Source: an uncultured Verrucomicrobiae bacterium (GTDB lineage: Bacteria; Verrucomicrobiota; Verrucomicrobiia; Limisphaerales; UBA11358). Taken from it: DNA of 64,000 bases. Shown here in pieces: positions 2 through 57,181 of the stretch (positions are counted from its first letter, which is position 1; the number at the start of each line of letters is the position of its first letter). A program made the position numbers and the translations under genes. The notes under the pieces were generated by a model that worked only from the letters and a program-made list of their open reading frames with translations, did not search any database and was not told where the DNA came from. The stretch spans positions 30,673 to 94,672 of the forward strand of contig CAWDPX010000017.1 of the NCBI GenBank assembly GCA_963804345.1, in the 5' to 3' direction.

Positions 2-3000
2 AATACATCGTCCAACACAGCGCAGGCGATTGCCGTGACGGTGGTTGATCTGACGCATGGTGATTTGCAGACCATCACTCTGACCGAGACCGGCACGAAC
101 ACCGGCGTCTTTCGCAATATCACCGGCCTGCCGACCTCCGGTACGTCCGGGCTGGCCCAGCAGGATGGCATTTTAAATGTCACTCCCGGCGACATTCTAA
201 GCGTGAGCTACGCCGACCCGAATTTCGGCGACAGCGCCACCAACACCGCTGCGATTCTGATTCCCTCGCCGAACAAACAACTTTACCTGAGCGTCAATGG
301 CTCGACCAACGGCGTGCAGGATTTGAACCGCTATGATCCGGTCGCCTACGGCCACAATCCGACGCACACCAGTGCCGACATCGGCAACACCGGGGCCTGG
401 CCATACCGGCAGCTTATCAATATCAACCACACGAATGTTTTCACCACGGACCAGACCAATTTCCCGGTCATGATAAATCTGGCATCCAACACCGGCCTGA
501 AAAATCACGCCCTAGCCAACGGCAATGACATTTTTTTCACTGCGAACGATGGCATTACCGTTCTGCCTTACGAACGGGAAAAATACACGAGCAGCAGCGG
601 GGCGCTGGTCGCGTGGGTGAACGTTCCCATTGTCAGCCACACCGCCGACACTGTGATCTACATGTATTACGGCAATCCGGCCGCGCCGGACCAGCAGAGC
701 GATCACAACGTCTGGGATTCCAATTATAAAATCGTTTATCACCTGGGCGACGCCGGCCCGACGACCGCTGTTGACTCCACCGCCAACGGCAATAATGGGA
801 CCGCCACCGGAGCCACCTTTGGCGCCGCAGGAGAGATTGGCAGTGCGACCAGTTACAGCAATGGCAACACCACTCCGGTGAACTTTATCGGCGCGGCATC
901 GGCCCCGGGCATCGGCTCGAATCAGAGCTTCAGTTTCGAAATGTGGATCAAAGTGACGGGCACCTACGTGAATCAGGCCAGCACGGCTGCGTCCAGCGGT
1001 ACTTGGTTTCTGGATCGGACCGTCGTCGCGAACGCATTGGTATCACTGATGCCGGTAGGAACCGGTCAGTTTGGCTTTCAAACACGCTACGATGATGGCA
1101 CCGGGCTGGGAGGCCCGTCTGGTGGAACGGTGTCGGCGAATTGGACGCATGTCGTGATGGTTCGCAATTACAACGCCGCCTTCCTTCTTTATGTGAACGG
1201 AGCTCAAGTCGGAACCACGGCCGATACCGGCAACAAAGCTCTGACTCCCTCACCTCCGAAACTTGGTCGTCATCAGAGTTTCACCTCAAACACGCCGGGG
1301 TTGAATGGCTTGATTGACGAATTCCGCGTTTCAAGCATCGCCCGGAGCGCCGGCTGGATTCAGACCGAATACACCAACCAAGCCTCTCCCGCCACTTTCT
1401 ATTCCATCGGGACGGAAACGACCAATTTCACCGCCAGCGTGACAACATTCGCGCAAACCCCTTCGTTCTGCTCGGCGTTTACGATGCCATCCAACAGTCT
1501 GATCACCATTACCAATTACGTCACCGTCACCAATGGTGTCATGCCCGCCAGCCCGGCGGTCACCGCCACGTTGCAATACAACGGCACGAATATCATAACG
1601 CTCTCCAACCCAACCTACACCGCCGCCAACAGCAACCTAGTCTGGAACGGCGTCCTGAGCAGCAATTTCACCATTCCCGCCGGCCAGGCCATCAGCTATG
1701 TCATCACCAACAGCCAGTCGGGCGTGTCTTTTCATGTGGATTACGACAGCACCAACAAACCGTCGAAAATCACCCTGCCCACCACCACAGTCATTCAAGT
1801 CAACTCCTTCAGCATTTACGACGCGCCGTATCCCAACGGCAATCTGGTCACCACGCCGGTCGCCGGTTCCACGATTTATGTTCGCGCCAATGTGAGCGAT
1901 CCGTTCGGCAGCTATGACATCACCAGCCTCGGCCTCGCCGTCACCGGGCCGAATCCCGCCGCCAGCTTTAGCACCAACTTAAACGATGCGAATCTTGTCG
2001 CCAGCGACACTTGCTCCAAGACGTATGAGTTTCGATGGATCACCGGTCCGACGACGGGCAGTTACAGCCTTGCGGCCACTGCGAACGAAGGCACCGAAGG
2101 GGTCAGTGCCGTGGCGACCGCCGGCATTTTCACCTATTTCCTCGACCTCGGCACGCCGAGCACCACGATATTCATCAGTGGCACGACGGGGATGCCCACC
2201 AACAGCTACCCCGCGGGCAGCAATGCCTGTATCAGCGTAACGGCATTGGATAGCATCACCAACGCTCAAACGTTGCAAACCATCAATGTCACTGTCACCA
2301 GCAGCGCGGGTGATTCGGAAAACCTTACGCTCTACGAAACCAGCACCAACACCGGCATTTACACCGGCTGCATCGGCACCAGCACCAGCGGTCCGGGTGC
2401 GACCAACGACGGCACATTGTATGCCCCGATAGGTTCCATTCTCACCGCGAGTTACACCGACCCGAATAATTCGAGTTACAGTTCCAGCGCCACCGCCACG
2501 ATTCAGCCCGCGCCCGGCGTGCCCGGCGTCCTGATGAATAAAACCATTCAATCGCCGCCCGGCGGACAGGCGGTTGCCGGCCAAGCTGTTACTTTCAACT
2601 TGCAAGCCGTCAACATCGGCAGCACCACGTTGCCTGGCTTGAGCATCACCGACAGTTTTCCGTCCACCAAGTTGAGTTACTCCTCAGCCAGCCTCGCGCC
2701 CAACAACATTGCCACCGGGCTCCTGACCTGGACCAACCTTGGCGCGTTCGCCCCCGGCCAGAGCACGAACATCACCGTCACCTTTACCGCCTCCACTGCC
2801 GGTGTGGTGACAAATTCTGCCACGGCCAATGGGGTCTCGATCACCAATAGCTCGTCGGTCTCGCTGCTGGTCAATAATCCGGCGTTGAGCGTCACGAAAA
2901 TTTTGTTAAGCCCCACCAACACGCCAGTGGCCGTCGGCAGCAATGTGGTTTTCCGCATCACCGTCCAGAACGTCGGCAACACCGTCGTCAACTATCTGCC

Positions 3001-6000
3001 ACTCGAAGACACGTTCAGCGGCGCATACTATCAATTCATCTCCGCCACCATCGCGCCAAACGGTTCCGGCGCGGGCAGCTTGATTTGGACGAACCTCGCC
3101 AGCCCGACGGCGCTCGCGACGAACGCCATCATCACGAATGACATCACCATGCAGGTGGTGGGTCAGGGCAACCCGGCTAATAACACCGCCACGGTGGACT
3201 ATGCCGCGGACGTTTTCAGCAATGCGATACCGGCGGTTTCCAGCACCATCGGCGTGAACACCGCTTCCGCCTCCATCAATGGACTCGTCTATAACGACAT
3301 CAATCAAAGCGGCGTGTTCACCAACGGCGACACCGGCTTGAGTGGTGTGACTTTGCAATTGTTCACCGATCCCAATGGCGATGGCAATCCGGCTGACGGC
3401 GCGCTGGTGCAGGTCACCACCACGGATGACAACGGATATTACGAATTGTTGAACCTTAACACCGGCCATTACGTCGTGGTGGAAACGGATTTGCCCGGCT
3501 ATGCCAACAGCGTGCCCGCCAACGGCCGGCTGACGCTCAACATCACCAATCTTGTCGCGTTTACGAATGCGAATTTCTTCCAATACATTCCCGCCCCGGC
3601 GGTGTATTCCACCATCAACGGCATGGTGTGGTATGACGCCAATGGCAACGGCACCAATAATGTCGGCGAGACGAACCTCGCCAACATCGAAATTGACCTC
3701 GTGCAGGATGTGAACAGCAATGGTGTGGCGGATTCCGGCGAGCCGGTGACTGCCAGAGTCACGACCGATGCCAATGGAAATTATTCCTTCGCCGGCATCA
3801 CACCCGGTCATTACGTCATTCGCCAGACGCTTCCTTACGGTTATTACACCACCGGCGATTCGCAGGGCCGGACCGATAACCAACTCACCTTTGTCAGCAC
3901 CAACGGGATTGTCAGCACCAACAATAGCTTCTTTGATCGCCTGTCGCCCACGGCCGTCAACGACACCAACTCGGCGCTGTACTTTGTGCCAGTCACGATT
4001 TATCCGCTCACCAACGACATCAATCCCAACAGCGATACGTTGACCATCACCAGCACCACGAGTTCCAACGGAATCGTTGTCATCAATCCAGGCAGTACTA
4101 ACATTACCTTCACGCCCACCAATACCGGCACGGCTATCATCGCTTACACCATCAGCGATAACCACGGCGGCACGTCCAGCGCCATCATTTCCATCAACGT
4201 CACTCAATTGGCTGACGTGGCAATTGGTAAAACGGGTCCGGCTGGTGTGCTGGCCAGCAGCGATCTGGTTTACACAATATCAGTGACGAACTTCGGGCCG
4301 TCGCCCGCTAATTTTGTAGTGGTAACGGACACGTTGCCGGCCACGGTGACGTTTGTGAGCGCCAGCGGCAACGGCGTGAACACCAGCGGCGTGGTGAGCT
4401 GGAGTTTGGGGACACTGGCCAGCGGCCAAGTCAGCAATCTCACCGTGACGGTGACGGTGCCGGCGAGCGGCACGCTGACCAACGTGGCGACGGCAAGCTC
4501 GCCGACCGGAGATCCGAACTCGACGAATAATGTGACGGCGCCGGTCATCACGACGGTGACGCCGGTGGCGGACGTGGGCATTGGCAAGGTGGGTTCAGCC
4601 TCCGTGTTGGCCAGCAGCGATCTGGTTTACACGATCTCAGTGACGAACTTTGGGCCATCGAGTGCCAGTAGTGTGGTGGTGACCGACACGCTGCCGTTGG
4701 GCGTGACGTTTGTGAGCGCCAGCGGCAACGGCGTGAACACCAGCGGCGTGGTGAGCTGGAGTTTGGGCACCTTGGCGAATGGCCAGGTGAGCAACGTGAC
4801 GGTGACGGTGACGGTGCCGGCCAGCGGCACGCTGACCAACGTGGCGACAGTAAGCTCGCCGACCGGAGATCCGAACTCGACGAATAATGTGACAGCGCCG
4901 GTCATCACGACGGTGACGCCGGTGGCGGACGTGGGCATTGGCAAGGTGGGTTCAGCCAGCGTTCTGGCCAGCAGCGATCTGGTATACACGATCTCAGTGA
5001 CGAACTTTGGGCCATCGAGTGCCAGTAGTGTGGTGGTGACCGACACGCTGCCGTTGGGCGTGACGTTTGTGAGCGCCAGCGGCAACGGCGTGAACACCAG
5101 CGGCGTGGTGAGCTGGAGTTTGGGCACCTTGGCGAATGGCCAGGTGAGCAATCTCACCGTGACGGTGACGGTGCCGGCGAGCGGCACGCTGACCAACGTG
5201 GCGACAGTAAGCTCGCCGACGGGTGATCCGAACAGCACGAACAACGTGACGGTACCGGTCATCACAACGGTAACCCCGGTGGCGGACCTTGGCCTTGGCA
5301 AGACCGCGGCAGCCAGCGTTCTGGCCAGCAGCAATTTGGTATACACGATCTCGGTGACGAATTTTGGTCCGTCGAGCGCGAGCGGCGTGGTGGTGACCGA
5401 CGCGCTGCCGTTGGGCATGACGTTTGTGAGCGCCAGCGGCAACGGCGTGAACACCAGCGGCGTGGTGAGCTGGAGTTTGGGGACACTGGCCAGCGGCCAA
5501 GTCAGCAATCTCACCGTGACGGTGACGGTGCCGGCGAGCGGCACGCTGACCAACGTGGCGACGGCAAGCTCGCCGACCGCAGATCCGAACTCGACGAATA
5601 ATGTGACGGCGCCGGTCATCACGACGGTGACGCCGGTGGCGGACGTGGGCATTGGCAAGGTGGGTTCAGCCAGCGTGCTGGCCAGCAGCGATCTGGTATA
5701 CACGATCTCGGTGACGAACTTTGGGCCATCGAGTGCCAGCAGCGTGGTGGTGACGGACACGCTGCCGTTGGGCGTGACGTTTGTGAGCGCCAGCGGTGGC
5801 GGAGCCAATAATAGCGGTGTGGTGAACTGGAGTTTGGGCACGCTGACCAGCGGCCAGGTGAGCAACGTGACGGTGACGGTGACAACCCCGGCCAGCGGCA
5901 CATTGACCAACACGGCCAGTGTTAGTTCGCCGACGGGTGATCCCAACAGTACCAACAACGTGACCCCACCGGTCATCACGACGGTGACGCCGGTGGCGGA

Positions 6001-9000
6001 CGTGGGCATTGGCAAGGTGGGTTCAGCCAGCGTGCTGGCCAGCAGCGATCTGGTATACACGATCTCGGTGACGAATTTTGGTCCGTCGAGTGCCAGCAGC
6101 GTGGTGGTGACCGACGCGCTGCCGTTGGGCATGACGTTTGTGAGCGCCAGCGGCAACGGCGTGAACACCAGCGGCGTGGTGAGCTGGAGTTTGGGGACAC
6201 TGGCCAGCGGCCAAGTCAGCAATCTCACCGTGACGGTGACGGTGCCGGCGAGCGGCACGCTGACCAACACGGCCAGTGTTAGCTCGCCGACGGGTGATCC
6301 GAACTCGACGAACAATGTGACGGTACCGGTCATCACAACGGTAACCCCGGTGGCGGACCTTGGCCTTGGCAAGACCGCGGCAGCCAGCGTGCTGGCCAGC
6401 AGCAACTTGGTATACACGATCTCGGTGACGAACTTCGGGCCGTCGAGCGCGAGCAGCGTAACCGTGACGGACACGTTGCCTGCGGGAGTGAGCTTTGTGA
6501 GCGCCAGCGGCAACGGCGTGAACACCAGCGGCGTGGTGAGCTGGAGTTTGGGGACACTGGCCAGCGGCCAAGTCAGCAATCTCACCGTGACGGTGACGGC
6601 CCCAGCCTCTGGTACGCTGACCAACGTGGCGACAGTAAGCTCGCCGACGGGTGATCCGAACAGCACGAACAACGTGACGGTACCGGTCATTACGACGGTG
6701 ACGCCGGTGGCGGACGTGGGCATTGGCAAGGTGGGTTCAGCCAGCGTTCTGGCCAGCAGCAATTTGGTATACACGATCTCGGTGACGAATTTTGGTCCGT
6801 CGAGCGCGAGCAGCGTAACCGTGACGGACACGTTGCCTGCGGGAGTGAGCTTTGTGAGCGCCAGCGGCAACGGCGTGAACACCAGCGGCGTGGTGAGCTG
6901 GAGTTTGGGCACCTTGGCGAATGGCCAGGTGAGCAACGTGACGGTGACGGTGACGGTGCCGGCGAGCGGCACGCTGACCAACGTGGCGACAGTAAGCTCG
7001 CCGACGGGTGATCCGAACAGCACGAACAACGTGACGGTACCGGTCATCACAACGGTAACCCCGGTGGCGGACGTGGGCATTGGCAAGGTGGGTTCAGCCA
7101 GCGTGTTGGCCAGCAGCAATTTGGTATACACGATCTCGGTGACGAACTTTGGGCCATCGAGCGCGAGCGGCGTGGTGGTGACCGACGCGCTGCCGTTGGG
7201 CATGACGTTTGTGAGCGCCAGCGGCAACGGCGTGAACACCAGCGGCGTGGTGAGCTGGAGTTTGGGCACCTTGGCGAATGGCCAGGTGAGCAACGTGACG
7301 GTGACGGTGACGGTGCCGGCGAGCGGCACGCTGACCAACGTGGCGACGGCAAGCTCGCCGACCGGAGATCCGAACTCGACGAATAATGTGACGGCGCCGG
7401 TCATCACAACGGTAACCCCGGTGGCGGACCTTGGCCTTGGCAAGACCGCGGCAGCCTCCGTGTTGGCCAGCAGCGATCTGGTTTACACGATCTCAGTGAC
7501 GAACTTTGGGCCATCGAGTGCCAGTAGTGTGGTGGTGACCGACACGCTGCCGTTGGGCGTGACGTTTGTGAGCGCCAGCGGCAACGGCGTGAACACCAGC
7601 GGCGTGGTGAGCTGGAGTTTGGGGACGCTGGGCAGCGGCCAGGTGAGCAACGTGACGGTGACGGTGACAACCCCGGCGAGCGGCACGCTGACCAACACGG
7701 CCAGTGTTAGTTCGCCGACGGGTGATCCGAACAGCACGAACAACGTGACCCCGCCGGTCATCACGACCGTGACGCCGGTGGCCGATGTGGGTCTGGGCAA
7801 GACCGGTTCAGCCTCCGTGCTGGCCACCAGCGATCTGGTATACACGATCTCGGTGACGAACTTTGGGCCATCGAGTGCCAGCAGCGTGGTGGTGACGGAC
7901 ACGCTGCCTGCGGGAGTGAGCTTTGTGAGCGCCAGCGGTGGCGGAGCCAATAACAGCGGCGTGGTGAGCTGGAGTTTGGGCACCTTGGCGAATGGCCAGG
8001 TGAGCAACGTGACGGTGACGGTGACAACCCCGGCGAGCGGCACGCTGACCAACACGGCCAGTGTTAGTTCGCCGACGGGTGATCCGAACAGCACGAACAA
8101 CGTGACGGTACCGGTCATCACAACGGTAACCCCGGTGGCGGACGTGGGCATTGGCAAGGTGGGTTCAGCCAGCGTGCTGGCCAGCAGCAATTTGGTATAC
8201 ACGATCTCGGTGACGAACTTTGGGCCATCCAGCGCGAGCGGCGTGGTGGTGACGGACACGTTGCCGGCCACGATGACGTTTGTGAGCGCCAGCGGCAACG
8301 GCGTGAACACCAGCGGCGTGGTGAGCTGGAGTTTGGGCACCTTGGCGAATGGCCAGGTGAGCAACGTGACGGTGACGGTGACGGTGCCGGCCAGCGGCAC
8401 GCTGACCAACGTGGCGACAGTAAGCTCGCCGACGGGTGATCCCAACAGTACCAACAACGTGACCCCGCCGGTCATCACGACGGTGACGCCGGTGGCCGAT
8501 GTGGGTCTGGGCAAAACCGGTTCAGCCAGCGTGCTGGCCAGCAGCGATCTGGTATACACGATTTCGGTGACGAACTTCGGTCCGTCGAGCGCGAGCAGCG
8601 TAACCGTGACGGACACGTTGCCTGCGGGAGTGAGCTTTGTGAGCGCCAGCGGCAACGGCGTGAACACCAGCGGCGTGGTGAGCTGGAGTTTGGGCACCTT
8701 GGCGAATGGCCAGGTGAGCAATCTCACCGTGACGGTGACGGCCCCAGCCTCTGGTACGCTGACCAACGTGGCGACAGTAAGCTCGCCGACCGGAGATCCG
8801 AACAGCACGAACAACGTGACGGTACCGGTCATCACAACGGTAACCCCGGTGGCGGACGTGGGCATTGGCAAGGTGGGTTCAGCCAGCGTGCTGGCCAGCA
8901 GCAATCTGGTTTACACGATCTCGGTGACGAACTTTGGGCCATCCAGCGCGAGCGGCGTGGTGGTAACGGACACGTTGCCGGCCACGGTGACGTTTGTGAG

Positions 9001-12000
9001 CGCCAGCGGCAACGGCGTGAACACCAGCGGCGTGGTGAGCTGGAGTTTGGGCACCTTGGCGAATGGCCAGGTGAGCAACGTGACGGTGACGGTGACGGTG
9101 CCGGCCAGCGGCACGCTGACCAACGTGGCGACAGTAAGCTCGCCGACCGGAGATCCGAACTCGACGAATAATGTGACAGCGCCGGTCATCACGACGGTGA
9201 CGCCGGTGGCGGACGTGGGCATTGGCAAGGTGGGTTCAGCCAGCGTGCTGGCCAGCAGCAATTTGGTATACACGATCTCGGTGACGAACTTTGGGCCATC
9301 GAGCGCGAGCAGCGTAACCGTGACGGACACGTTGCCGGCCACGGTGACGTTTGTGAGCGCCAGCGGCAATGGCGTGAACACCAGCGGCGTGGTGAGCTGG
9401 AGTTTGGGGACGCTGGGCAGCGGCCAGGTGAGCAACGTGACGGTGACGGTGACAACCCCGGCGAGCGGCACGCTGACCAACACGGCCAGTGTTAGTTCGC
9501 CGACGGGTGATCCGAACAGCACGAACAACGTGACCCCGCCGGTCATCACGACCGTGACGCCGGTGGCCGATGTGGGTCTGGGCAAGACCGGTTCAGCCTC
9601 CGTGCTGGCCACCAGCGATCTGGTATACACGATCTCGGTGACGAACTTTGGGCCATCGAGTGCCAGCAGCGTGGTGGTGACGGACACGCTGCCTGCGGGA
9701 GTGAGCTTTGTGAGCGCCAGCGGTGGCGGAGCCAATAACAGCGGCGTGGTGAGCTGGAGTTTGGGCACCTTGGCGAATGGCCAGGTGAGCAACGTGACGG
9801 TGACGGTGACAACCCCGGCGAGCGGCACGCTGACCAACACGGCCAGTGTTAGTTCGCCGACGGGTGATCCGAACAGCACGAACAACGTGACGGTACCGGT
9901 CATCACAACGGTAACCCCGGTGGCGGACGTGGGCATTGGCAAGGTGGGTTCAGCCAGCGTGTTGGCCAGCAGCAATTTGGTATACACGATCTCGGTGACG
10001 AACTTTGGGCCATCCAGCGCGAGCGGCGTGGTGGTGACGGACACGTTGCCGGCCACGGTGACGTTTGTGAGCGCCAGCGGTGGCGGAGCCAATAACAGCG
10101 GCGTGGTGAGCTGGAGTTTGGGCACCTTGGCGAATGGCCAGGTGAGCAACGTGACGGTGACGGTGACAACCCCGGCGAGCGGCACGCTGACCAACACGGC
10201 CAGTGTTAGTTCGCCGACGGGTGATCCGAACAGCACGAACAACGTGACGGTACCGGTCATCACAACGGTAACCCCGGTGGCGGACGTGGGCATTGGCAAG
10301 GTGGGTTCAGCCAGCGTGTTGGCCAGCAGCAATTTGGTATACACGATCTCGGTGACGAACTTTGGGCCATCGAGCGCGAGCGGCGTGGTGGTGACGGACA
10401 CGTTGCCGGCCACGGTGACGTTTGTGAGCGCCAGCGGTGGCGGAGCCAATAACAGCGGCGTGGTGAGCTGGAGTTTGGGCACCTTGGCGAATGGCCAGGT
10501 GAGCAACGTGACGGTGACGGTGATGGTGCCGGCCAGCGGCACGCTGACCAACGTGGCGACAGTAAGCTCGCCGACGGGTGATCCGAACAGCACGAACAAC
10601 GTGACGGTACCGGTCATTACGACGGTGACGCCGGTGGCCGATGTCAGCGTGAGCAAGCATGGTCCAGTGGGCATAACCTTCGGGACGAATTTTAGTTACA
10701 GCATATCCGTGACGAACTTCGGTCCGTCAACTGCGAGCAGCGTAACCGTGACAGACAGTTTGCCGGTGGGGCTGGTGTTTGTGAGTTCGGTGCCTGTCAC
10801 AACGACGAACGCCAGCAATCAGGTCGTTTGGAGTCTCGGCAATCTGGCGGTGGGCGCGACCACGAATCTGACGTTGAATGTGATGTCCATTTTGCGCGGA
10901 ACGGTCACGAACTTGGCGACCGGCGCCAGTCCGGTATTTGACCCCGTGACCACCAATAATGTCAGCCAGCCGGTCATCACGGCCATCACTAATATCCCGC
11001 CGGCGGCGAATCCAGACAGTTATGCGATGGCGGAGAACATGACGAACACATTCAGTCCGCTGCTCAACGATTTGGTGCAGACGCCTGGCGGCAGCCTGAC
11101 CATCATCAGTGTCAATCCAACCAACGGCACCGCTTTCATTGTGGGCGGGACCAATGTCCTGTTCACGCCGCACATCAACTTCATCGGCACGGCCACCATC
11201 GGTTACACCATCAGTGATAACGTGGGCGGGACCAACGCGTCGCTGATCACGGTGACGGTGACGAACCGGCCGCCTATTGCCAATGGTCAGAGTGTGACAA
11301 CGACTGCGAACACGCCGTTGGCGATTTTGCTCACCGGCAACGACCCCAATGGCCTGCCGCTGACGTTTGTGATAGTGAGCGGACCGGTCAATGGCTCGTT
11401 GAGTCTTTTGAACACCAACACCGGGGCGGTAACATACACGCCAAACACGAATTACAGCGGGTCGGACAGTTTCACCTTCCGCGTGAACGACGGCCAGGCG
11501 AACAGCGCCACAGCCACGGTTTCGTTGACGATTTTACCGACGGCCGATGTCACCGTTTTCAAAACCGGTCCGGCTAGCGGAGTGGTCGGTTCCAACATGA
11601 CTTACACCATTACCGTGGCCAACAACGGTCCGGCAACGGCAGCAAACGTGGCGTTGTTTGACCAACTGCCAGCCGGATTCACCCTGGTAAGCGCGACGCC
11701 GGCAACGGTGGCGGTTTCCAACAATCTGGTGAGCTGGCCCGGATTCAACCTGATCAAAAACGCCACCAGCAACTTCACGGTGACGGTGGTTTCTGCTGAT
11801 GGAGGCAGTTACACCAACATCGCCTTCAGCACGGCAAACACGCTGGATCCAAATCCGACCAACAACAACGGCACAGCGACAAATTCACAGGCGATCACGG
11901 CGGTGACGGCGCTGGCGGATGTGGCAGTATTCAAGACCGGCAGCACGAACATCCAGCCGGGGGGCACGCTGACTTATACCATTACCGCGACCAACGCCGG

Positions 12001-13408
12001 GCCTTCGACGGCGACGAACGTCGTGGTGCAGGATACCTTGCCGGCGAATGTCACGTTCCAGACCGCGTCCGGCGGTTACAGTTTAAGCAACAATCTCGTG
12101 ACGTGGCCGCTGACGTCCCTGGCCAAAGGCGCCTCGACTACGTTCACCGTGACCGTGACCGCGCCGGCGAGCGGCTCGTTTGTCAATATCGCTTCGACCG
12201 TTTCCGGCACGCCGGACCCGAACCCGACGAACAACAACGGCACCGCGTCCGGATCACGGGTCAGCACGTCGGTGGTGCCGGTGGCGGACGTGCAGGTCTT
12301 TTTGTATGGACCGACCAACGTGACGCTGGGCGACGCATTCTTCTACACGGTGGTGGTGACCAACGCCGGGCCTTCGCCGGCGGTGAACACGCTGGCGCGG
12401 GATTTCCTGCCGACAAACCTGGTGTTTACCAGCGCGTCGGGCGGCGGCGTGTATTCCAATGGCATCGTGACCTGGCCGGTCCTCGCGTCGCTGGCCAGCG
12501 GCCAGGCAACCAATCTGATTGTGAATGTCGCGCCGTCGGTCGCCGGTTCGACGAACCTGCTGTCGTTCCCGACCAATCGTCCGTTCAATTTCATCGAGAC
12601 GAACATGACATTCTTTGCGGGCATCCTGACGAACATCGCGTCAGCCTACGCGACGACGTATGATCCGAATCTGTCAAACAACAACGGCACATTGCCAACG
12701 GAACAGGTGCAGACCGTCATCACGCCCGGCGTGTTCAGCGTCGTCGTTGCTACGAACACGTATCCGACCAACACTGTCCTCACCAACACCATCATCGCCA
12801 TCGGGCCGGACTTGTTTGTTGTCGGCACCAGCGCGTTCAACCCGCAGACCGGGCTCTACGAGGAAACCGTGACGGTGACGAACATCGGAACGACCGTGGT
12901 GCATGCGCTGCGGCTGTATGTCGGCGGGCTGCGCAGCGGAGTGACTCTGTACAACGCCACCGGCACCAACAATGGCGTGCCTTATGTGGAATATGATCCG
13001 CCCTATAGCACGCCGCTGTATCCGTTCCCGGCGTTCACGAACGACAACAGTGTCACTTTCGTGCTGGAATTCTTCGTGGCAGACCGGCGGCCCTTCACAA
13101 ACTCGTTGTGGGCTGTGGCGATTGTTCCGTCGCCGACCTCGGTGACCAACGGCACGCCGGTGTTCATCAGCCAGATATTCATCGATTGGCGTGACGCGGG
13201 CCAGAGTCGTTTCGTGATCGGATTTGACAGCATTCCGGGCCGGACGTACACGATCGAATACAGTTCCGACCTGGTGACGTGGAGTATTGCCGTGCCGTCC
13301 ATCGTTGCCAGCGCGAACGTGACTCAATGGTATGACGACGGCCCACCCAAGACCGTCAGCAAACCAATGTCCGTGGGCTACCGGTTTTACCGGGTCATCC
13401 AACAGTGA
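2..13408 (+). CDS. Giant surface/adhesin-like protein, 5'-truncated by the window edge: DUF2341-like + LamG, SdrD-B-like, Ig-like (Big_9) and many DUF11-like domains, plus a C-terminal sorting-like domain
   Basis: The 4457-aa ORF is open back to base 2 (NTSSNTAQAIAV) with no signal peptide, so the true start lies upstream. It has a LamG motif (WTHVVMV..LYVNG..GLIDEFRVS), DUF11-type units (YTISVTNFGPS..VVVTDTLP) and ends RFYRVIQQ. Confidence 0.9.
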   Translation, partial: NTSSNTAQAIAVTVVDLTHGDLQTITLTETGTNTGVFRNITGLPTSGTSGLAQQDGILNVTPGDILSVSYADPNFGDSATNTAAILIPSPNKQLYLSVNGSTNGVQDLNRYDPVAYGHNPTHTSADIGNTGAWPYRQLININHTNVFTTDQTNFPVMINLASNTGLKNHALANGNDIFFTANDGITVLPYEREKYTSSSGALVAWVNVPIVSHTADTVIYMYYGNPAAPDQQSDHNVWDSNYKIVYHLGDAGPTTAVDSTANGNNGTATGATFGAAGEIGSATSYSNGNTTPVNFIGAASAPGIGSNQSFSFEMWIKVTGTYVNQASTAASSGTWFLDRTVVANALVSLMPVGTGQFGFQTRYDDGTGLGGPSGGTVSANWTHVVMVRNYNAAFLLYVNGAQVGTTADTGNKALTPSPPKLGRHQSFTSNTPGLNGLIDEFRVSSIARSAGWIQTEYTNQASPATFYSIGTETTNFTASVTTFAQTPSFCSAFTMPSNSLITITNYVTVTNGVMPASPAVTATLQYNGTNIITLSNPTYTAANSNLVWNGVLSSNFTIPAGQAISYVITNSQSGVSFHVDYDSTNKPSKITLPTTTVIQVNSFSIYDAPYPNGNLVTTPVAGSTIYVRANVSDPFGSYDITSLGLAVTGPNPAASFSTNLNDANLVASDTCSKTYEFRWITGPTTGSYSLAATANEGTEGVSAVATAGIFTYFLDLGTPSTTIFISGTTGMPTNSYPAGSNACISVTALDSITNAQTLQTINVTVTSSAGDSENLTLYETSTNTGIYTGCIGTSTSGPGATNDGTLYAPIGSILTASYTDPNNSSYSSSATATIQPAPGVPGVLMNKTIQSPPGGQAVAGQAVTFNLQAVNIGSTTLPGLSITDSFPSTKLSYSSASLAPNNIATGLLTWTNLGAFAPGQSTNITVTFTASTAGVVTNSATANGVSITNSSSVSLLVNNPALSVTKILLSPTNTPVAVGSNVVFRITVQNVGNTVVNYLPLEDTFSGAYYQFISATIAPNGSGAGSLIWTNLASPTALATNAIITNDITMQVVGQGNPANNTATVDYAADVFSNAIPAVSSTIGVNTASASINGLVYNDINQSGVFTNGDTGLSGVTLQLFTDPNGDGNPADGALVQVTTTDDNGYYELLNLNTGHYVVVETDLPGYANSVPANGRLTLNITNLVAFTNANFFQYIPAPAVYSTINGMVWYDANGNGTNNVGETNLANIEIDLVQDVNSNGVADSGEPVTARVTTDANGNYSFAGITPGHYVIRQTLPYGYYTTGDSQGRTDNQLTFVSTNGIVSTNNSFFDRLSPTAVNDTNSALYFVPVTIYPLTNDINPNSDTLTITSTTSSNGIVVINPGSTNITFTPTNTGTAIIAYTISDNHGGTSSAIISINVTQLADVAIGKTGPAGVLASSDLVYTISVTNFGPSPANFVVVTDTLPATVTFVSASGNGVNTSGVVSWSLGTLASGQVSNLTVTVTVPASGTLTNVATASSPTGDPNSTNNVTAPVITTVTPVADVGIGKVGSASVLASSDLVYTISVTNFGPSSASSVVVTDTLPLGVTFVSASGNGVNTSGVVSWSLGTLANGQVSNVTVTVTVPASGTLTNVATVSSPTGDPNSTNNVTAPVITTVTPVADVGIGKVGSASVLASSDLVYTISVTNFGPSSASSVVVTDTLPLGVTFVSASGNGVNTSGVVSWSLGTLANGQVSNLTVTVTVPASGTLTNVATVSSPTGDPNSTNNVTVPVITTVTPVADLGLGKTAAASVLASSNLVYTISVTNFGPSSASGVVVTDALPLGMTFVSASGNGVNTSGVVSWSLGTLASGQVSNLTVTVTVPASGTLTNVATASSPTADPNSTNNVTAPVITTVTPVADVGIGKVGSASVLASSDLVYTISVTNFGPSSASSVVVTDTLPLGVTFVSASGGGANNSGVVNWSLGTLTSGQVSNVTVTVTTPASGTLTNTASVSSPTGDPNSTNNVTPPVITTVTPVADVGIGKVGSASVLASSDLVYTISVTNFGPSSASSVVVTDALPLGMTFVSASGNGVNTSGVVSWSLGTLASGQVSNLTVTVTVPASGTLTNTASVSSPTGDPNSTNNVTVPVITTVTPVADLGLGKTAAASVLASSNLVYTISVTNFGPSSASSVTVTDTLPAGVSFVSASGNGVNTSGVVSWSLGTLASGQVSNLTVTVTAPASGTLTNVATVSSPTGDPNSTNNVTVPVITTVTPVADVGIGKVGSASVLASSNLVYTISVTNFGPSSASSVTVTDTLPAGVSFVSASGNGVNTSGVVSWSLGTLANGQVSNVTVTVTVPASGTLTNVATVSSPTGDPNSTNNVTVPVITTVTPVADVGIGKVGSASVLASSNLVYTISVTNFGPSSASGVVVTDALPLGMTFVSASGNGVNTSGVVSWSLGTLANGQVSNVTVTVTVPASGTLTNVATASSPTGDPNSTNNVTAPVITTVTPVADLGLGKTAAASVLASSDLVYTISVTNFGPSSASSVVVTDTLPLGVTFVSASGNGVNTSGVVSWSLGTLGSGQVSNVTVTVTTPASGTLTNTASVSSPTGDPNSTNNVTPPVITTVTPVADVGLGKTGSASVLATSDLVYTISVTNFGPSSASSVVVTDTLPAGVSFVSASGGGANNSGVVSWSLGTLANGQVSNVTVTVTTPASGTLTNTASVSSPTGDPNSTNNVTVPVITTVTPVADVGIGKVGSASVLASSNLVYTISVTNFGPSSASGVVVTDTLPATMTFVSASGNGVNTSGVVSWSLGTLANGQVSNVTVTVTVPASGTLTNVATVSSPTGDPNSTNNVTPPVITTVTPVADVGLGKTGSASVLASSDLVYTISVTNFGPSSASSVTVTDTLPAGVSFVSASGNGVNTSGVVSWSLGTLANGQVSNLTVTVTAPASGTLTNVATVSSPTGDPNSTNNVTVPVITTVTPVADVGIGKVGSASVLASSNLVYTISVTNFGPSSASGVVVTDTLPATVTFVSASGNGVNTSGVVSWSLGTLANGQVSNVTVTVTVPASGTLTNVATVSSPTGDPNSTNNVTAPVITTVTPVADVGIGKVGSASVLASSNLVYTISVTNFGPSSASSVTVTDTLPATVTFVSASGNGVNTSGVVSWSLGTLGSGQVSNVTVTVTTPASGTLTNTASVSSPTGDPNSTNNVTPPVITTVTPVADVGLGKTGSASVLATSDLVYTISVTNFGPSSASSVVVTDTLPAGVSFVSASGGGANNSGVVSWSLGTLANGQVSNVTVTVTTPASGTLTNTASVSSPTGDPNSTNNVTVPVITTVTPVADVGIGKVGSASVLASSNLVYTISVTNFGPSSASGVVVTDTLPATVTFVSASGGGANNSGVVSWSLGTLANGQVSNVTVTVTTPASGTLTNTASVSSPTGDPNSTNNVTVPVITTVTPVADVGIGKVGSASVLASSNLVYTISVTNFGPSSASGVVVTDTLPATVTFVSASGGGANNSGVVSWSLGTLANGQVSNVTVTVMVPASGTLTNVATVSSPTGDPNSTNNVTVPVITTVTPVADVSVSKHGPVGITFGTNFSYSISVTNFGPSTASSVTVTDSLPVGLVFVSSVPVTTTNASNQVVWSLGNLAVGATTNLTLNVMSILRGTVTNLATGASPVFDPVTTNNVSQPVITAITNIPPAANPDSYAMAENMTNTFSPLLNDLVQTPGGSLTIISVNPTNGTAFIVGGTNVLFTPHINFIGTATIGYTISDNVGGTNASLITVTVTNRPPIANGQSVTTTANTPLAILLTGNDPNGLPLTFVIVSGPVNGSLSLLNTNTGAVTYTPNTNYSGSDSFTFRVNDGQANSATATVSLTILPTADVTVFKTGPASGVVGSNMTYTITVANNGPATAANVALFDQLPAGFTLVSATPATVAVSNNLVSWPGFNLIKNATSNFTVTVVSADGGSYTNIAFSTANTLDPNPTNNNGTATNSQAITAVTALADVAVFKTGSTNIQPGGTLTYTITATNAGPSTATNVVVQDTLPANVTFQTASGGYSLSNNLVTWPLTSLAKGASTTFTVTVTAPASGSFVNIASTVSGTPDPNPTNNNGTASGSRVSTSVVPVADVQVFLYGPTNVTLGDAFFYTVVVTNAGPSPAVNTLARDFLPTNLVFTSASGGGVYSNGIVTWPVLASLASGQATNLIVNVAPSVAGSTNLLSFPTNRPFNFIETNMTFFAGILTNIASAYATTYDPNLSNNNGTLPTEQVQTVITPGVFSVVVATNTYPTNTVLTNTIIAIGPDLFVVGTSAFNPQTGLYEETVTVTNIGTTVVHALRLYVGGLRSGVTLYNATGTNNGVPYVEYDPPYSTPLYPFPAFTNDNSVTFVLEFFVADRRPFTNSLWAVAIVPSPTSVTNGTPVFISQIFIDWRDAGQSRFVIGFDSIPGRTYTIEYSSDLVTWSIAVPSIVASANVTQWYDDGPPKTVSKPMSVGYRFYRVIQQ
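4211..10636 (+). repeat. Tandem array of 18 near-identical 357-bp (119-aa) coding repeats, plus a diverged 19th unit from 10637
   Basis: Unit starts (AD[V/L]..GK) recur every 357 bp at about 4211, 4568, 4925 ... 10280 and 10637. Confidence 0.95.
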
Positions 13409-13431
13409 ACTGATAAAACTGACATCGACCC

Positions 13432-14505
13432 ATGAACAACAATCGCAGAGCTTGGACGACGCCGGTGATCGGCTCGCTTGTGTTGGCCACGGCGGCGTCC
13501 GCTGAACAGGATTGGCAAACCAATTCCATTTCCACCAACCGCCTCTCGCTTTCGTTGCGGTTCGGGCTTAACATCTCCGGCAAATTCACAGGGGTCGGCA
13601 GATCATTCAGTTCCGGCGACCCCTTGTCCGCCGGCCGCCATACTCCGAACGGCGACGCCTACAATTACGACAACGGTTACGTGCTTACTGACAACAGCGG
13701 CAACTATGGCGGCCAGTCTTGGTATTGGGGCTACGACAACGCCAGTCAGGTCAATGCCGGCGCCAACACCATCGCTTTCAACCATACCCTGGCCACCGGT
13801 TTGCCCTCGGAAAATTCCGGTGACGATTCGCCCTACGTTGGGGCCGAGTTGACCTATGATTACGAACTCGGCGTGAAGGTGGATTGGCACCACCTGTGCT
13901 ACGGCCTCGAAGGCGCGGTCAACTTCCTGCCCGTTGAATTCAACAGCGGCGGTCGCTACAACGCCACGTTGTCGCAGCGCACCGACACCTACAGCTACAC
14001 GCCTGGCACCACGCCGCCGACCGCGCCGTATCAGGGCAGCTATGGCGGCCCCGGTTTTGTTATCAACGTCCCGCCGGTCAACTCCACTACCGCACTGGTT
14101 CCCGGCGCGACGTTTCTCGCGCAACAGCATTTCGATGCGAACCTCTGGGGTTTTCGTCTCGGACCTTACGTTGAGCTGCCGGTTTCCGAACGATTGGATT
14201 TATTCCTTACCGGCGGCCTTGCCGTGGGATTGCTCGACGGTGAAGCGTCCTGGAAGGAAACCCTTACGCTGCCCGGTGGTGCCGGTTCACTTACGGCCAG
14301 TGGTGGTGGCAGTGACACCTCTCTGCTCTGGGGCTATTATCTTGGGCTGAACGCCGCGTATCAATTCACCGAACGCTGGTGCGTGGAAGCTGGCGTGCAA
14401 TTCCAAAACCTCGGCACTTATAACCACAATTTCGGCGGCCGCGAGGCCGAATTGGATTTGAGCAAGTCCCTCTTCATCCACGCCGGCATCGGCTACAGCT
14501 TTTAA
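13432..14505 (+). CDS. Putative outer-membrane beta-barrel protein
   Basis: Signal peptide (ASA-EQ), alternating amphipathic strands and a terminal aromatic motif GIGYSF. Starts 23 bp after the giant gene. Confidence 0.75.
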   Translation: MNNNRRAWTTPVIGSLVLATAASAEQDWQTNSISTNRLSLSLRFGLNISGKFTGVGRSFSSGDPLSAGRHTPNGDAYNYDNGYVLTDNSGNYGGQSWYWGYDNASQVNAGANTIAFNHTLATGLPSENSGDDSPYVGAELTYDYELGVKVDWHHLCYGLEGAVNFLPVEFNSGGRYNATLSQRTDTYSYTPGTTPPTAPYQGSYGGPGFVINVPPVNSTTALVPGATFLAQQHFDANLWGFRLGPYVELPVSERLDLFLTGGLAVGLLDGEASWKETLTLPGGAGSLTASGGGSDTSLLWGYYLGLNAAYQFTERWCVEAGVQFQNLGTYNHNFGGREAELDLSKSLFIHAGIGYSF

Positions 14506-14743
14506 TGCTTATCGCGTGGTGATTGACCGTTTCTGGCATTGCTCGCGAGCGGCGGCGCCTTGCCCGCCGGTCACCCTGAAACTTCCAGGCGGGTGACGAA
14601 TACTTACATATCGTGATTGAGCTAATCCGGAATACACAAAAATTGAGTGATAACCGGGCAGGGTTCTGCCGGATGCGCCGGAATTTTTTGTCCGCACTCT
14701 GCGCTTGCTTCGTGCCAAAAAATCAGCGTCTATTGGACTCATA

Positions 14744-26548: not shown

Positions 26549-26804
26549 GGCGCTGATGGGGAAAATTAACAAAACCGCCGGGGCAGGTCAATGGCATCCA
26601 TGTGACCTGGCCCATTCCCAATTAAATGATTACGATTGAGGCCGGATTTTCCATCTCGCCGCGCGACCGGTTTGGTGGAGCGAGTCAGCGCCAGGGTGGG
26701 ATTTCCCCGAACAAATTCGCGCCTTGAACCCCGGAACCGGCGCTGCCGGGAAGTTCGTGGTGAAGAGAAACGGCTTTGGTTAATTCTGCGATGTTCAACG
26801 GAAC

Positions 26805-55177: not shown

Positions 55178-56056
55178 TTAAGCGCGCCGGTTCCGGCGCC
55201 GCACGCACAGCAACAGCAACCCACCGGCAATCATGGTCGCCGTCGCCGGTTCCGGCACCACGGCGATGTCAAAGGACAGGGTTGGCGAATACAGCGCCGG
55301 GTTGCTGCCGCTGCTGTAACTGTGCGAGGTGAAATTGAAGGCTACGTGATTGTCGGCAGGGGTGAGCAGCAACGAAATCGAATCGCCGGACATCAAGGCG
55401 GACAAAAAGTCGGCGTTGGCTGTGCTGACTGAATACGTTGCGGGCACCAGCGTTCCTTGCGCCACGTACGAACAGGTGTTGAGCAGCGTGGCGGGTGTGG
55501 CGCTCAACGTGGATTGGAGGCTGTTGTAAGTGATGCCGGTGTAGGAAGCAGGCGACTGGCTGCCCGTGCCTTGAATCCAGTCGCCATCGTTGAACAGCCA
55601 ACTGACGTTGAAGCTCCCGCTGGTGCCGGGACTGTTGAACATGGAATTGCCGACGGTGCTGGAGGTGTTCAAGGTCAAGGACAGGGATGAAATGCTCCAG
55701 TCGCCAACGCCGTATTCTGAGTTCAGCGTGGCCACCGTGGAGGAGAAATCAAACCGCAGGACCGAGTCGAATTCGCCTTTGGAGGGATTGGCGGGGTAGT
55801 TGCCAGGATGCGCCGAGGGCGAGGCGATGGAACGCGAGTTCATGCCGCCAAAATTTTGGCTGGCGGCGTTTGGATAACTGCTGTTGCCCGGGCCGGGATT
55901 CAGCACAAAGGAGTCGTCCGTGTCATAAACGGAAACGGAGGGTTGCGCCTGAACGGCAACATTCCAGAGCGCGGTGCAAACGGCCGCCAGGGCCAGTGCG
56001 GGTTTATAATGGTTGATGAGTTTCATTTTGAGGGTTTGTTTCATGTTGTTTTTCAT
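55178..56056 (-). CDS. PEP-CTERM exosortase-target protein
   Basis: Own signal peptide (VQA-QP) and ends VPEP + TM helix + RRRNRR. Its ATG overlaps the upstream TGA (ATGA). Confidence 0.88.
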   Translation of the reverse strand: MKNNMKQTLKMKLINHYKPALALAAVCTALWNVAVQAQPSVSVYDTDDSFVLNPGPGNSSYPNAASQNFGGMNSRSIASPSAHPGNYPANPSKGEFDSVLRFDFSSTVATLNSEYGVGDWSISSLSLTLNTSSTVGNSMFNSPGTSGSFNVSWLFNDGDWIQGTGSQSPASYTGITYNSLQSTLSATPATLLNTCSYVAQGTLVPATYSVSTANADFLSALMSGDSISLLLTPADNHVAFNFTSHSYSSGSNPALYSPTLSFDIAVVPEPATATMIAGGLLLLCVRRRNRRA

Positions 56057-57181
56057 TTGAGGATGCGTATTCGCAAAAAGCGGCTGGTGGCGGCGGGCAC
56101 TGGTACGAGGTCGCGCACGGTCACATTTTTGAGACCCTGCCGTGACCGAAACGGTTTCACTGACCAGTCCCGGTCCGCTCATAGGCATGCCGTTGGTGCC
56201 AGCGGCCACGAGTGTCCACTGGCTTTGGGTCAAAGCGGCGGCGGCCTCCACGAGGTAAGTCAGGTTGGTGACCCCGGCGAGGCGTTGAAAACTCAAGTTT
56301 AAATACTGGGTGCCGTTCAAAAGTCTGATTTGTGCCACCGGCGGCGGCAGCGGCGAGGCGGTGACAAAAATCGTCGCCGAATACTCATTCGTGCCCCGGT
56401 CGTCGCCGTATTGGTGCGAAGTGAAATTAAAGGCGACCTGATCATCCGCCGCGTTAAACAACAGCGTGGTGGGCTGCGTGTTGATGAGCGCCGCCAGGAA
56501 TGACAGGTTCGTTGTCGTCAGGGAATTGGTCACGGGAATGAGCGTTCCCTGCTTCACAAAATTCAGCGTGTTCAGCACCACCGCCGGATTGGTGCTCAAA
56601 ATGGATTGCAGGCCGTTGTAGGTCAGGTTGGTGAAATTATCCGGACTTGCGACCGGATCGTGCGAGCTGCTTCCCTGATTGATGTAACCGTTGCCTTGAA
56701 CCCAGCCGCCATCGTTGGGCATCCAGCAGACATTGAATTGGCCGGCAGTGCCTGGTGCATTGAACATTCCGGGACCGGCCACGTTGTCGGAGGTCGTTAG
56801 TTTCAGCGCCAGCCCGGTGATGCGCCAGCAACCCACGCCGTATTGCGCGTCGAGTTGCGCGACGGCGTTGGACGGATAAAACCGGGCCACCACGTCAAAC
56901 TCGCCCATGCTTGGATTGGCGGGATTGCCTCCCGGATGCGCTGTGGCCGCCGCAACGTGCCGCGAGCGCATATAACCGAAATTGCGTTCGGCTCCATCCC
57001 AGTAGCTGGCCATGTTGCCCGGCCCCGGTGACATTACAAAAGTGTCATCGGTCGCATAAATTGGCGCGGTGGTTTGTGCGACGACCGGCAGAGTCAGGAG
57101 CGTCAATAGCCCGCCCAAGACTGCCGCCAACCACTGCGGTTTTGACTTCGTTCGCACGTGCTGAGTTGATTTCGTAGTCAT
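56053..57181 (-). CDS. Exported paralog of the PEP-CTERM protein with a different C-terminal domain; a 1-bp frameshift near 56126-56137 fuses it to the next gene
   Basis: Removing one base gives ..NVTVRDLVPVPAATSRFLRIRILK* ending at 56053. The N-terminal domain is clearly homologous to the downstream protein. Confidence 0.8.

Follow-up and report, generated by a model that had tools for sequence, protein, structure and literature searches.

A bipartite C-terminal module of exported adhesin-like proteins is paired with a predicted OmpW-class outer-membrane barrel in a conserved gene cassette of Verrucomicrobia

A 64,000-nucleotide stretch of the genome of an uncultured Verrucomicrobiae bacterium (assembly GCA_963804345.1, contig CAWDPX010000017.1, positions 30,673 to 94,672; hereinafter, the window) carries a giant gene for an exported, adhesin-like protein with DUF11 repeats (2..13408, + strand), which is followed by a gene for a 357-residue protein predicted to be an outer-membrane beta-barrel (13432..14505, + strand). 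The 5' end of the giant gene lies upstream of the window, and its whole open frame comprises 5129 codons (G000:C17:28691-44077, where G000 denotes the genome under study, 4.64 Mb, 88.9% complete). The two genes are separated by a gap of 23 nt (13409..13431, + strand) in which no promoter-like or terminator-like site was seen, so that they are probably co-transcribed. Here we show that this gene pair is a recurrent cassette, in which the barrel is linked one to one with a particular two-domain module at the C terminus of the upstream protein.

The giant protein has a signal-peptide-like N terminus (MLIRCSFHRPIRWLVMAVCAFGCLAPSAQA). Pfam profiles for DUF11 (PF01345; 1601.7 bits over 24 stretches, above the cut-off) and Chlam_OMP6 (PF03504; E 1.4e-76, 253.3 bits against a cut-off of 34.1) match it, as do those for Big_9, Cadherin_5, SdrD_B and SpaA, and because of these matches we describe it as a repeat adhesin-like protein. 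On the + strand, the translated open reading frame (ORF) 2..13408 closes with ...FDSIPGRTYTIEYSSDLVTWSIAVPSIVASANVTQWYDDGPPKTVSKPMSVGYRFYRVIQQ before the stop codon, and the terminal residues can be read as ...IPGRTYTIEYSSDLVTWSIAVPSIVASANVTQWYDDGPPKTVSKPMSVGYRFYRVIQQ followed by the stop. The C terminus as a whole has the form ...YTIEYSSDLVTW...WYDDGPPKT...RFYRVIQQ, with the last codon ending at 13405, which confirms the ending reported in an initial annotation of the window made from its sequence alone. That annotation also correctly placed an outer-membrane barrel gene 23 bp after the giant gene, where the ORF from 13432 yields an all-beta barrel model, and its statement that the giant lacks an autotransporter barrel, RTX repeats and PEP-CTERM holds in Pfam and NCBIfam scans, where no domain of these three kinds was found on the giant protein.

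The last part of the giant protein (13151..13405, + strand) is a copy of a fibronectin type III (FN3)-like domain of about 65 residues with the pattern Y-x-V-Q-x-S-x-N-L...W...RFYRV..P, hereinafter the RFYRV tail, whose terminal strand motif RFYRV is encoded at 13382..13396 (+ strand). A scan of all stop-to-stop ORFs of G000 for the terminal motif yielded 42 candidates, three of which misfitted the alignment and were dropped; the remaining 39 served as seeds of a 72-position profile. This profile detected 90 copies of the domain in 85 ORFs of G000 (independent E-value, iE, below 1e-3), with 79 copies ending at most 12 residues from the stop codon and the other 11 in tandem or internal positions. 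A profile made of 37 other tails, from which the giant and its paralogue (see below) were excluded, matched the last 120 residues of the giant with an E-value of 2.6e-7 (32 bits; E-values scaled to 39,715 ORFs), far beyond chance similarity; in that run the giant at full length did not pass the HMMER filters. The initial annotation had captured the shared C-terminal motif in a regular expression and proposed a check of its strictly terminal location with a hidden Markov model; the motif is real on the giant, but the expression undersells a domain that is common in G000, and the location of this domain is strongly, although not strictly, terminal.

Among the 19 tail carriers that were scanned, the passengers preceding the tail are unrelated and include pro-kumamolisin/sedolisin, matrixin, Kelch, PD40, BNR, Exo_endo_phos, Ig and DUF11 domains. 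In these carriers, no Pfam family covers the tail; neither Pfam nor NCBIfam matches the tail of the giant, and the Pfam fibronectin type III profile (PF00041) has no sequence match on the tails. The model of the tail aligns with FN3 domains over 70-75 residues at Z 5.7-6.7, values typical of common arrangements. As far as these profile searches reach, the tail domain belongs to no catalogued family, and a full-text literature search, limited in coverage and terms, found no paper on the tail or on a DUF11-barrel pair of Verrucomicrobia. A signal-peptide heuristic was positive for 60 of 75 tail-bearing ORFs and for 150 of 400 controls, and carries no weight because it is too permissive.

Several features of individual tail genes in G000 are worth recording. 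Two tail proteins, encoded at C19 1-1248 and C26(-) 26592-29306, have identical last 90 residues and homologous downstream ORFs; the C19 copy starts at base 1 of its contig. The two are likely an assembly duplicate or a recent duplication, and therefore the count of 85 would be too high by one. Six of the 79 terminal-tail genes (C14 35150-35974; C14 92437-94836; C2(-) 118365-121538; C3 111166-115143; C4(-) 121438-122445; and C4(-) 626950-629976, strand-relative) directly precede a gene whose product has a prepilin-type motif (GFTLIELLVVIAII...) at its N terminus, the background being 32 ORFs of at least 120 residues with this motif in G000, which may hint at a link of tail proteins to a pseudopilin or type II secretion-like system. 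Three paralogous tail proteins of about 350-410 residues (C15 182411-183649; C21(-) 257992-259041; C2 99370-100605, strand-relative) are followed, 4 nt on, by an ORF of about 170 residues that resembles a response-regulator receiver.

In the giant protein, the tail is the second half of a larger conserved unit. An alignment of the last 262 residues of 52 proteins encoded upstream of barrel genes shows that these proteins diverge N-terminal to a unit of about 195 residues, composed of a beta-sandwich domain (12821..13129, + strand), a variable linker and a tail that contains an insertion of the form W-x-D-x-G-P-P-x-T. The first domain is characterized by the motif FNPQTGLYEE..VTVTN....LYNATGTNNG.PYVQYN....LEFY.P.R.PFTN. 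The insertion, WYDDGPPKT in the giant (13328..13354, + strand), marks the barrel-linked sub-type of the tail: none of the 52 sequences varies at its D, G, second P or T, and it occurs on just two tails of G000, both of which are followed by a barrel gene. The model of the module (residues 68-262 of the aligned segment) consists of two sandwiches with a predicted local distance difference test score (pLDDT) of 77-92. The first of these (residues 68-170, block pLDDT 77-92) has no Pfam or NCBIfam match and resembles CBM2, CBM3 and MG-like sandwiches at Z 6-7.1, again in the range of common arrangements. A Foldseek search with the module model returned generic double sandwiches alone (TMq at most 0.24), and no solved structure is related to the module by sequence (best E 0.66, a nanobody).

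Searched against 1.84 billion proteins, the module profile matched 3948 representatives with E-values of at most 1e-3, 1764 with at most 1e-10 and 925 with at most 1e-30. Among the 150 best representatives, the module lies within 10 residues of the C terminus in 147, and the 47 of these 150 that were scanned with Pfam carry passengers with DUF11, Big_9/cadherin-like, MBG_2, HYR, Ig, ice-binding-like and VWA domains. At one locus in a related genome (G026:C161:32261-32818), the open frame that a barrel-linked module closes runs to 10,068 codons and is twice as long as the giant gene of G000.

Two barrels are encoded in G000, that of the window and exactly one paralogue (E 6.6e-24). The gene of the second barrel shares 4 nt with the end of the gene before it, which encodes a 460-residue DUF11 protein; the last 320 residues of this protein align to the last 380 residues of the giant (32% identity, E 7.7e-30), and it has the sole other tail of G000 with the insertion, here of the type WIDYGPPET. 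Among 41 genomes, G000 included, 26 yielded the barrel, at 30 loci in total, and contig ends truncate three of these loci (L007, L023 and L025); at 26 of the 27 loci with upstream DNA, two of them those of G000, an ORF that ends in the tail lies directly upstream on the same strand (25 detected by profile and L006 by eye). The exception, L026, is a weak barrel match (E 3.4e-6) with no upstream tail. A scan of named contigs of metagenome-assembled genomes, for which a 24-row barrel alignment was used because the 41-row one was too divergent, produced 57 loci, mostly labelled as Verrucomicrobia subdivision 3, Limisphaerales or Pedosphaera, with one labelled Pontiella and some with odd labels. 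After the removal of six loci (L051, L052, L065 and L074, which lie at the edges of contigs; L067, which is N-masked; L087, a 42-residue fragment), a tail of the barrel-linked sub-type was found directly upstream in all 51 assessable ones (46 by profile, five by eye). The two sets of loci overlap, with at least L002/L033, L003/L036, L004/L045, L006/L047 and L007/L052 being identical places; in both, the upstream side of the neighbourhood of the barrel, the conservation of which the initial annotation had proposed as a check, is conserved.

The two parts also co-occur and co-diverge. With a threshold of E at most 1e-15 for the module, both parts are present in 23 of the 41 genomes and neither in 14, the barrel alone in three (G010 and G012, in both of which the barrel is at the start of a contig, and G018, a weak match) and the module alone in one. 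Pairwise identities of barrels and modules correlate across 69 cassettes with r = 0.79, a value reached in none of 999 Mantel permutations, and the insertion types WYDDGPPKT, WIDNGQPKT and WIDYGPPTT track three groups of barrels. Because the genomes are related, this co-divergence indicates that the two parts are inherited together, which falls short of proof of contact. Two proteins, in G038 (contig C5) and G039 (contig C241), combine the first domain with a tail without the insertion, and no barrel follows them.

The linkage is specific to the bipartite sub-type. The barrel can be rejected as a partner of tails at large, since G000 has two barrels against 85 tail ORFs, the other 83 of which have no such neighbour; the ORFs that follow terminal-tail genes form, the barrel pair aside, just three small, unrelated homology groups. 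By sequence and gene order, the barrel thus pairs one to one with the bipartite sub-type rather than with the tail in general. The proposal of the initial annotation of a cognate relationship between the C terminus of the giant and the neighbouring barrel accordingly gains support for the bipartite sub-type, from synteny, presence and absence, two-to-two copy number, co-divergence and a weak co-folding signal (see below), but is not supported for the shared tail as a whole.

Some cassette contigs are titled Bifidobacteriaceae, Bifidobacterium, Acidiferrales or Sulfotelmatobacter (L031, L038, L050, L056, L060, L062, L067, L068 and L081-L083); these titles are probably wrong labels or result from mis-binning. 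In the window, the barrel gene is followed by a gene for a GH106 alpha-L-rhamnosidase (14705-17572, + strand, E 1.2e-61), which lies outside the conserved cassette because the downstream neighbours vary from locus to locus.

The barrel has a signal-peptide-like N terminus (approximately residues 1-24) and ends in ...GIGYSF, with a terminal aromatic residue. Its model, obtained with a 41-row alignment, is all-beta with a mean pLDDT of 86.4, and in comparisons with VIA-align the best fold match is OmpW (2f1t_A, Z 17.7, root-mean-square deviation 2.5, 174 residues aligned). The next 8-stranded matches, at Z 16-17, are Thermus TtoA, OmpA, NspA, OprF-N and PagL; the same top band also holds Legionella Dot/Icm porin III (Z 17.2) and an 8-stranded transmembrane barrel designed de novo (Z 17.4), and the 10-stranded OmpT scores only Z 9.6. 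On the basis of this model, the barrel can be assigned to the 8-stranded OmpW/OmpA fold class. A Foldseek search of the PDB with the barrel retrieved generic barrels alone (TM at most 0.31). In the DSSP string of the model, short turns appear at residues 150-154, 251-254 and 312-315, the predicted periplasmic turns being of 4-5 residues, whereas a folded segment of 88 residues (47-134, encoded at approximately 13570-13833, + strand) and a segment of 28 residues (189-216) occupy the positions expected for the extracellular loops L1 and L2. The most conserved motifs of the barrel family sit in these two segments.

Sequence comparisons leave the barrel family without a close named relative. The barrel of the window (P0001) scores 14.3 bits against OMP_b-brl (PF13505; cut-off 28.7), a family with weak matches in 17 of 41 barrel members at E-values of at most 0.1 (best 4.7e-7), and has no match to the OmpW family PF03922. 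Weak matches to Pom, the Protochlamydia outer-membrane protein, were obtained for 10 of the 41 members (best E 3.4e-4, below the curated threshold). The Atlas neighbours of the barrel are Verrucomicrobiota clusters without a name, with Pom clusters among the neighbours at 0.94; a search with the barrel gave 649 clusters with E-values of at most 0.001, nearly all without Pfam annotation, and no solved structure is related to it by sequence (best NspA, E 0.32). Identification of the barrel as an autotransporter, TpsB, PorP/SprF or PorV-like protein finds no sequence support, and VIA-align favours 8-stranded barrels.

Residues 33-357 of the barrel were co-folded with the last 203 residues of the giant protein, each chain with its own alignment, as the initial annotation had suggested. 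The pair scored 0.59 (0.61, 0.58 and 0.59 in individual runs), and the best of three controls scored 0.00; the runs share at least 98% of their contacts, with a pLDDT of at least 80 for the partner. In calibration, 116 of 157 solved complexes passed the mark, as did 2 of 215 mismatched pairs. However, the band of scores up to 0.60 contains just 18 of the 157 solved complexes together with both of the passing mismatches, and passes in this band are more often wrong than right unless the pairing was likely beforehand. For the barrel and the module, the genomic prior from synteny was strong before co-folding. The co-folding check is thus passed but in the weak band, and the models lend weak support to a direct interaction.

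A putative second occurrence of the tail in the window, on the - strand, was paired with the giant in the initial annotation. The ORF 55178-57181 (-) comprises two tandem paralogues, 49% identical over their shared part, that are fused by a frame problem. The upstream copy (56053..57181) contains a -1 frameshift in an A5 run at 56126-56130 and, once corrected, ends in RFLRIRILK; its corrected stop overlaps the start codon of the downstream copy (55178..56056) as ATGA, at 56053-56056, and therefore the frameshift in this sequence is suggested to be recent or an assembly error. The downstream paralogue scores 19.8 bits (E 8.3e-4) against PEP-CTERM (PF07589), whose cut-off is 20.7, and the motif VPEPATATMIAGGLLLLCVRRRNRRA is visible. 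The ending of the upstream copy exists after the shift, but its score is not significant (10.3 bits and a genome-scale E-value of 1.5 for the first half of the tail, 3.5 bits for the RFLRI half), so that it does not qualify on its own as a family member. Homologues occur in five of 40 related genomes: G004, G015 and G017 have tandem pairs in which one copy carries a clear tail (iE 1e-10 to 1e-18) and its neighbour PEP-CTERM, and G016 and G028 have single copies ending in PEP-CTERM. It is this context alone, namely the clear tails on homologues and the ATGA overlap, that makes it plausible to read the second example as a member of the tail family that has decayed or was mis-sequenced. At the level of sequence, the paralogue pair presents the tail in the place of a known sorting signal.

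The interpretation that we favour, with moderate confidence, is that the bipartite C-terminal module and the OmpW-class barrel constitute an anchor cassette for adhesins, comparable to, but not a member of, the pairs of type B C-terminal domains and PorP/SprF barrels of type IX secretion systems (T9SS). Both the giant adhesin and the barrel would be exported by Sec, and the barrel would insert into the outer membrane as an 8-stranded barrel of the OmpW/OmpA class. Its conserved long loops L1 and L2 would form a folded cap, probably facing outward, on which the C-terminal module of the adhesin would dock non-covalently, and the variable passenger (DUF11, cadherin-like, MBG, HYR, Ig, VWA and ice-binding-like repeats) would thereby be kept on the cell. 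The barrel is more likely an anchor than a translocon, because an 8-stranded barrel is predicted to be too narrow to conduct a polypeptide. This also bears on the PorV-like logic invoked in the initial annotation: best fold matches of the 8-stranded OmpW/OmpA class speak for a static anchor and against a translocating barrel or a PorV-like shuttle with 14 strands.

Several observations weigh against the anchor interpretation. The co-folding pass falls in the band in which mismatched pairs also pass. Any kind of functional coupling, if passed on as a cassette, would likewise produce synteny, co-occurrence and co-divergence, and the related genomes are not independent. Two barrel-linked tails (L020 and L028) lack the insertion, and G011 encodes a module, with an IS66-like ORF adjoining, and no barrel was found in this genome. 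The sole barrel-less module among the 41 genomes (L098, G011:C6:573300-577000) thus lies beside an IS66-like transposase ORF, which would fit a rearrangement that removed the barrel. The outward orientation of L1 and L2 in the model follows from general rules for outer-membrane proteins, and the crossing of the outer membrane by a protein of 5,100 residues is left unexplained by an anchor. Finally, the chlamydial cysteine-rich protein OmcB has been argued to stay periplasmic; if the giant does so too, docking would take place on the periplasmic side of the outer membrane.

Other explanations of the cassette differ in what they make of the same linkage. In the manner of PorP/SprF, the barrel might be a factor dedicated to export or shuttling, which would collect the module at a putative outer-membrane translocon and be needed for secretion of the adhesin. 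The one-to-one pairing, the co-divergence and the weak co-folding pass (0.59 against 0.00) also fit a shuttle, as does the gene order, which is that of T9SS type B, where an SprF-like gene lies directly downstream and a cognate shuttle is required (PMC12618676). We nevertheless consider a shuttle unlikely: an 8-stranded barrel should itself be unable to conduct protein, no translocon candidate is linked to the cassette, which in the window is followed by the GH106 rhamnosidase gene and elsewhere by varying neighbours, and SprA_N, GldM and PorP_SprF were not found in the 88.9%-complete G000, although this is weak evidence, as no match for SprA_N or PorP_SprF turned up in control genomes. The Chlam_OMP6 (E 1.4e-76) and DUF11 matches of the giant, the weak Pom matches in 10 of 41 barrel members with the Pom Atlas neighbours at 0.94, and the lack of an evident outer-membrane secretion route for a protein of this size would fit a periplasm-facing scaffold, in which an OmcB-like DUF11 protein stays in the periplasm and its module is tethered to the inner face of the barrel, as part of an outer-membrane complex of the type found in the Planctomycetes-Verrucomicrobia-Chlamydiae (PVC) superphylum. 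Such a scaffold appears improbable, because proteins with the module bear classic extracellular adhesin domains (cadherin-like, VWA, HYR and ice-binding-like), the long conserved segments of the barrel are at the predicted positions of extracellular loops with periplasmic turns of just 4-5 residues, and the Pom matches are under any curated threshold.

The link between barrel and module could also be functional without direct binding. The best fold match of the barrel is OmpW, of the family named OmpW/AlkL, whose role is that of a channel for small hydrophobic molecules, and a small-molecule channel of this kind, or an envelope protein co-regulated with the adhesin, would produce synteny, which by itself does not prove contact. 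However, the linkage tracks the C-terminal module and not the widely varying passenger, module and barrel co-vary, and the co-folding test is passed, if weakly (0.59 against 0.00), so that we see little likelihood in coupling of this sort. Still less probable is that the shared tail is a common structural FN3-like spacer without a sorting or anchoring role, its terminal position being incidental: 11 of 90 tail copies in G000 are internal or in tandem, and the sandwich is generic with middling Z-scores, but 79 of these copies and 147 of the 150 best module matches are terminal, tandem paralogues carry either the tail or PEP-CTERM in three other genomes and in the window, and one sub-type of the tail has a dedicated barrel. 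A broader extension of the anchor interpretation would cast RFYRV tails in general as ligands of a T9SS-independent, PVC-specific surface-docking system with a separate outer-membrane receptor for each sub-type, the cassette being the first receptor-ligand pair; we regard this as speculative and, at present, rather doubtful. Such a system may share ancestry with the outer-membrane complex of chlamydiae, with its OmcB-like DUF11 protein and Pom-like or porin-like barrel.

The cassette of barrel and module is a new result. Soil and freshwater harbour bacteria of the Verrucomicrobia type in abundance, and the genomes of these bacteria hold dozens to hundreds of genes for exported proteins with the RFYRV tail; the cassette suggests that the phylum has its own means of attaching adhesins to the cell surface. 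Should the binding be real, the module, with at least 925 representatives at 50% identity, and the barrel, with at least 649 clusters at 90% identity, would each define a new protein family. The sub-type with an adjoining dedicated barrel gene constitutes a concrete, testable pair, and G000 offers two such cassettes.

Among known systems, a classical autotransporter (type Va) differs from the cassette, in which the barrel has a separate gene and its own signal peptide, Autotransporter Pfam profiles find no match and the fold matches are 8-stranded; likewise, no POTRA, Bac_surface_Ag, ShlB or haemagglutination-domain match, as in two-partner secretion, was found on the giant or the barrel members. 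The PEP-CTERM/exosortase signal shares with the tail the C-terminal position on paralogous passengers; it is a short transmembrane helix, whereas the tail is predicted to be a folded, soluble beta-sandwich. The passenger of the giant resembles chlamydial OmcB in its matches to Chlam_OMP6 and DUF11 above the curated cut-offs, and the host of OmcB belongs to the same PVC superphylum as Verrucomicrobia, but the giant, at about 5,100 residues, is far larger than OmcB with its approximately 550 residues. With the OmpW/OmpA-N/NspA class, the barrel shares the best fold matches (Z 16-17.7), the signal peptide and the terminal aromatic residue; unlike these proteins, it is about twice the size, with 330 residues in the mature form, an 88-residue folded L1 and a long L2 hairpin, and has no significant sequence match to OmpW.

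The closest functional parallel is provided by the type B C-terminal domains and PorP/SprF barrels of the T9SS of Bacteroidota, exemplified by the SprB-SprF and PG1035-PorP pairs, which likewise combine a large repetitive adhesin that has a folded C-terminal domain with a barrel. In PMC12618676, a gene resembling porP/sprF is described as commonly lying directly 3' of the gene of the type B substrate, in cognate pairs, with secretion of fusions to the C-terminal domain requiring the cognate shuttle; SprF binds the giant adhesin SprB, and anchorage at the surface through binding to the barrel has been proposed (PMC12618676; PMC9143113). The same arrangement, with the barrel gene directly downstream of the substrate gene and partners in cognate pairs, was looked for and found here. 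By every sequence test of tail and barrel, the cassette nevertheless appears to lie outside the T9SS families: at E-values of at most 0.1, the last 501 residues of the giant have no match to the type A domain (Por_Secre_tail PF18962 / TIGR04183), its C-terminal region has none to the type B domain (TIGR04131 / CHU_C PF13585), and PorP_SprF (PF11751) matches none of the 41 barrel members; a search of G000 for PorP_SprF gave no match either. It is also unlike the type B pairs in phylum, in the 8-stranded, OmpW-class model of its barrel and in the two-domain composition of its module. If the predicted binding is correct, the anchoring of giant adhesins by a C-terminal domain plus cognate barrel would have arisen in Verrucomicrobia independently of the T9SS of Bacteroidota.

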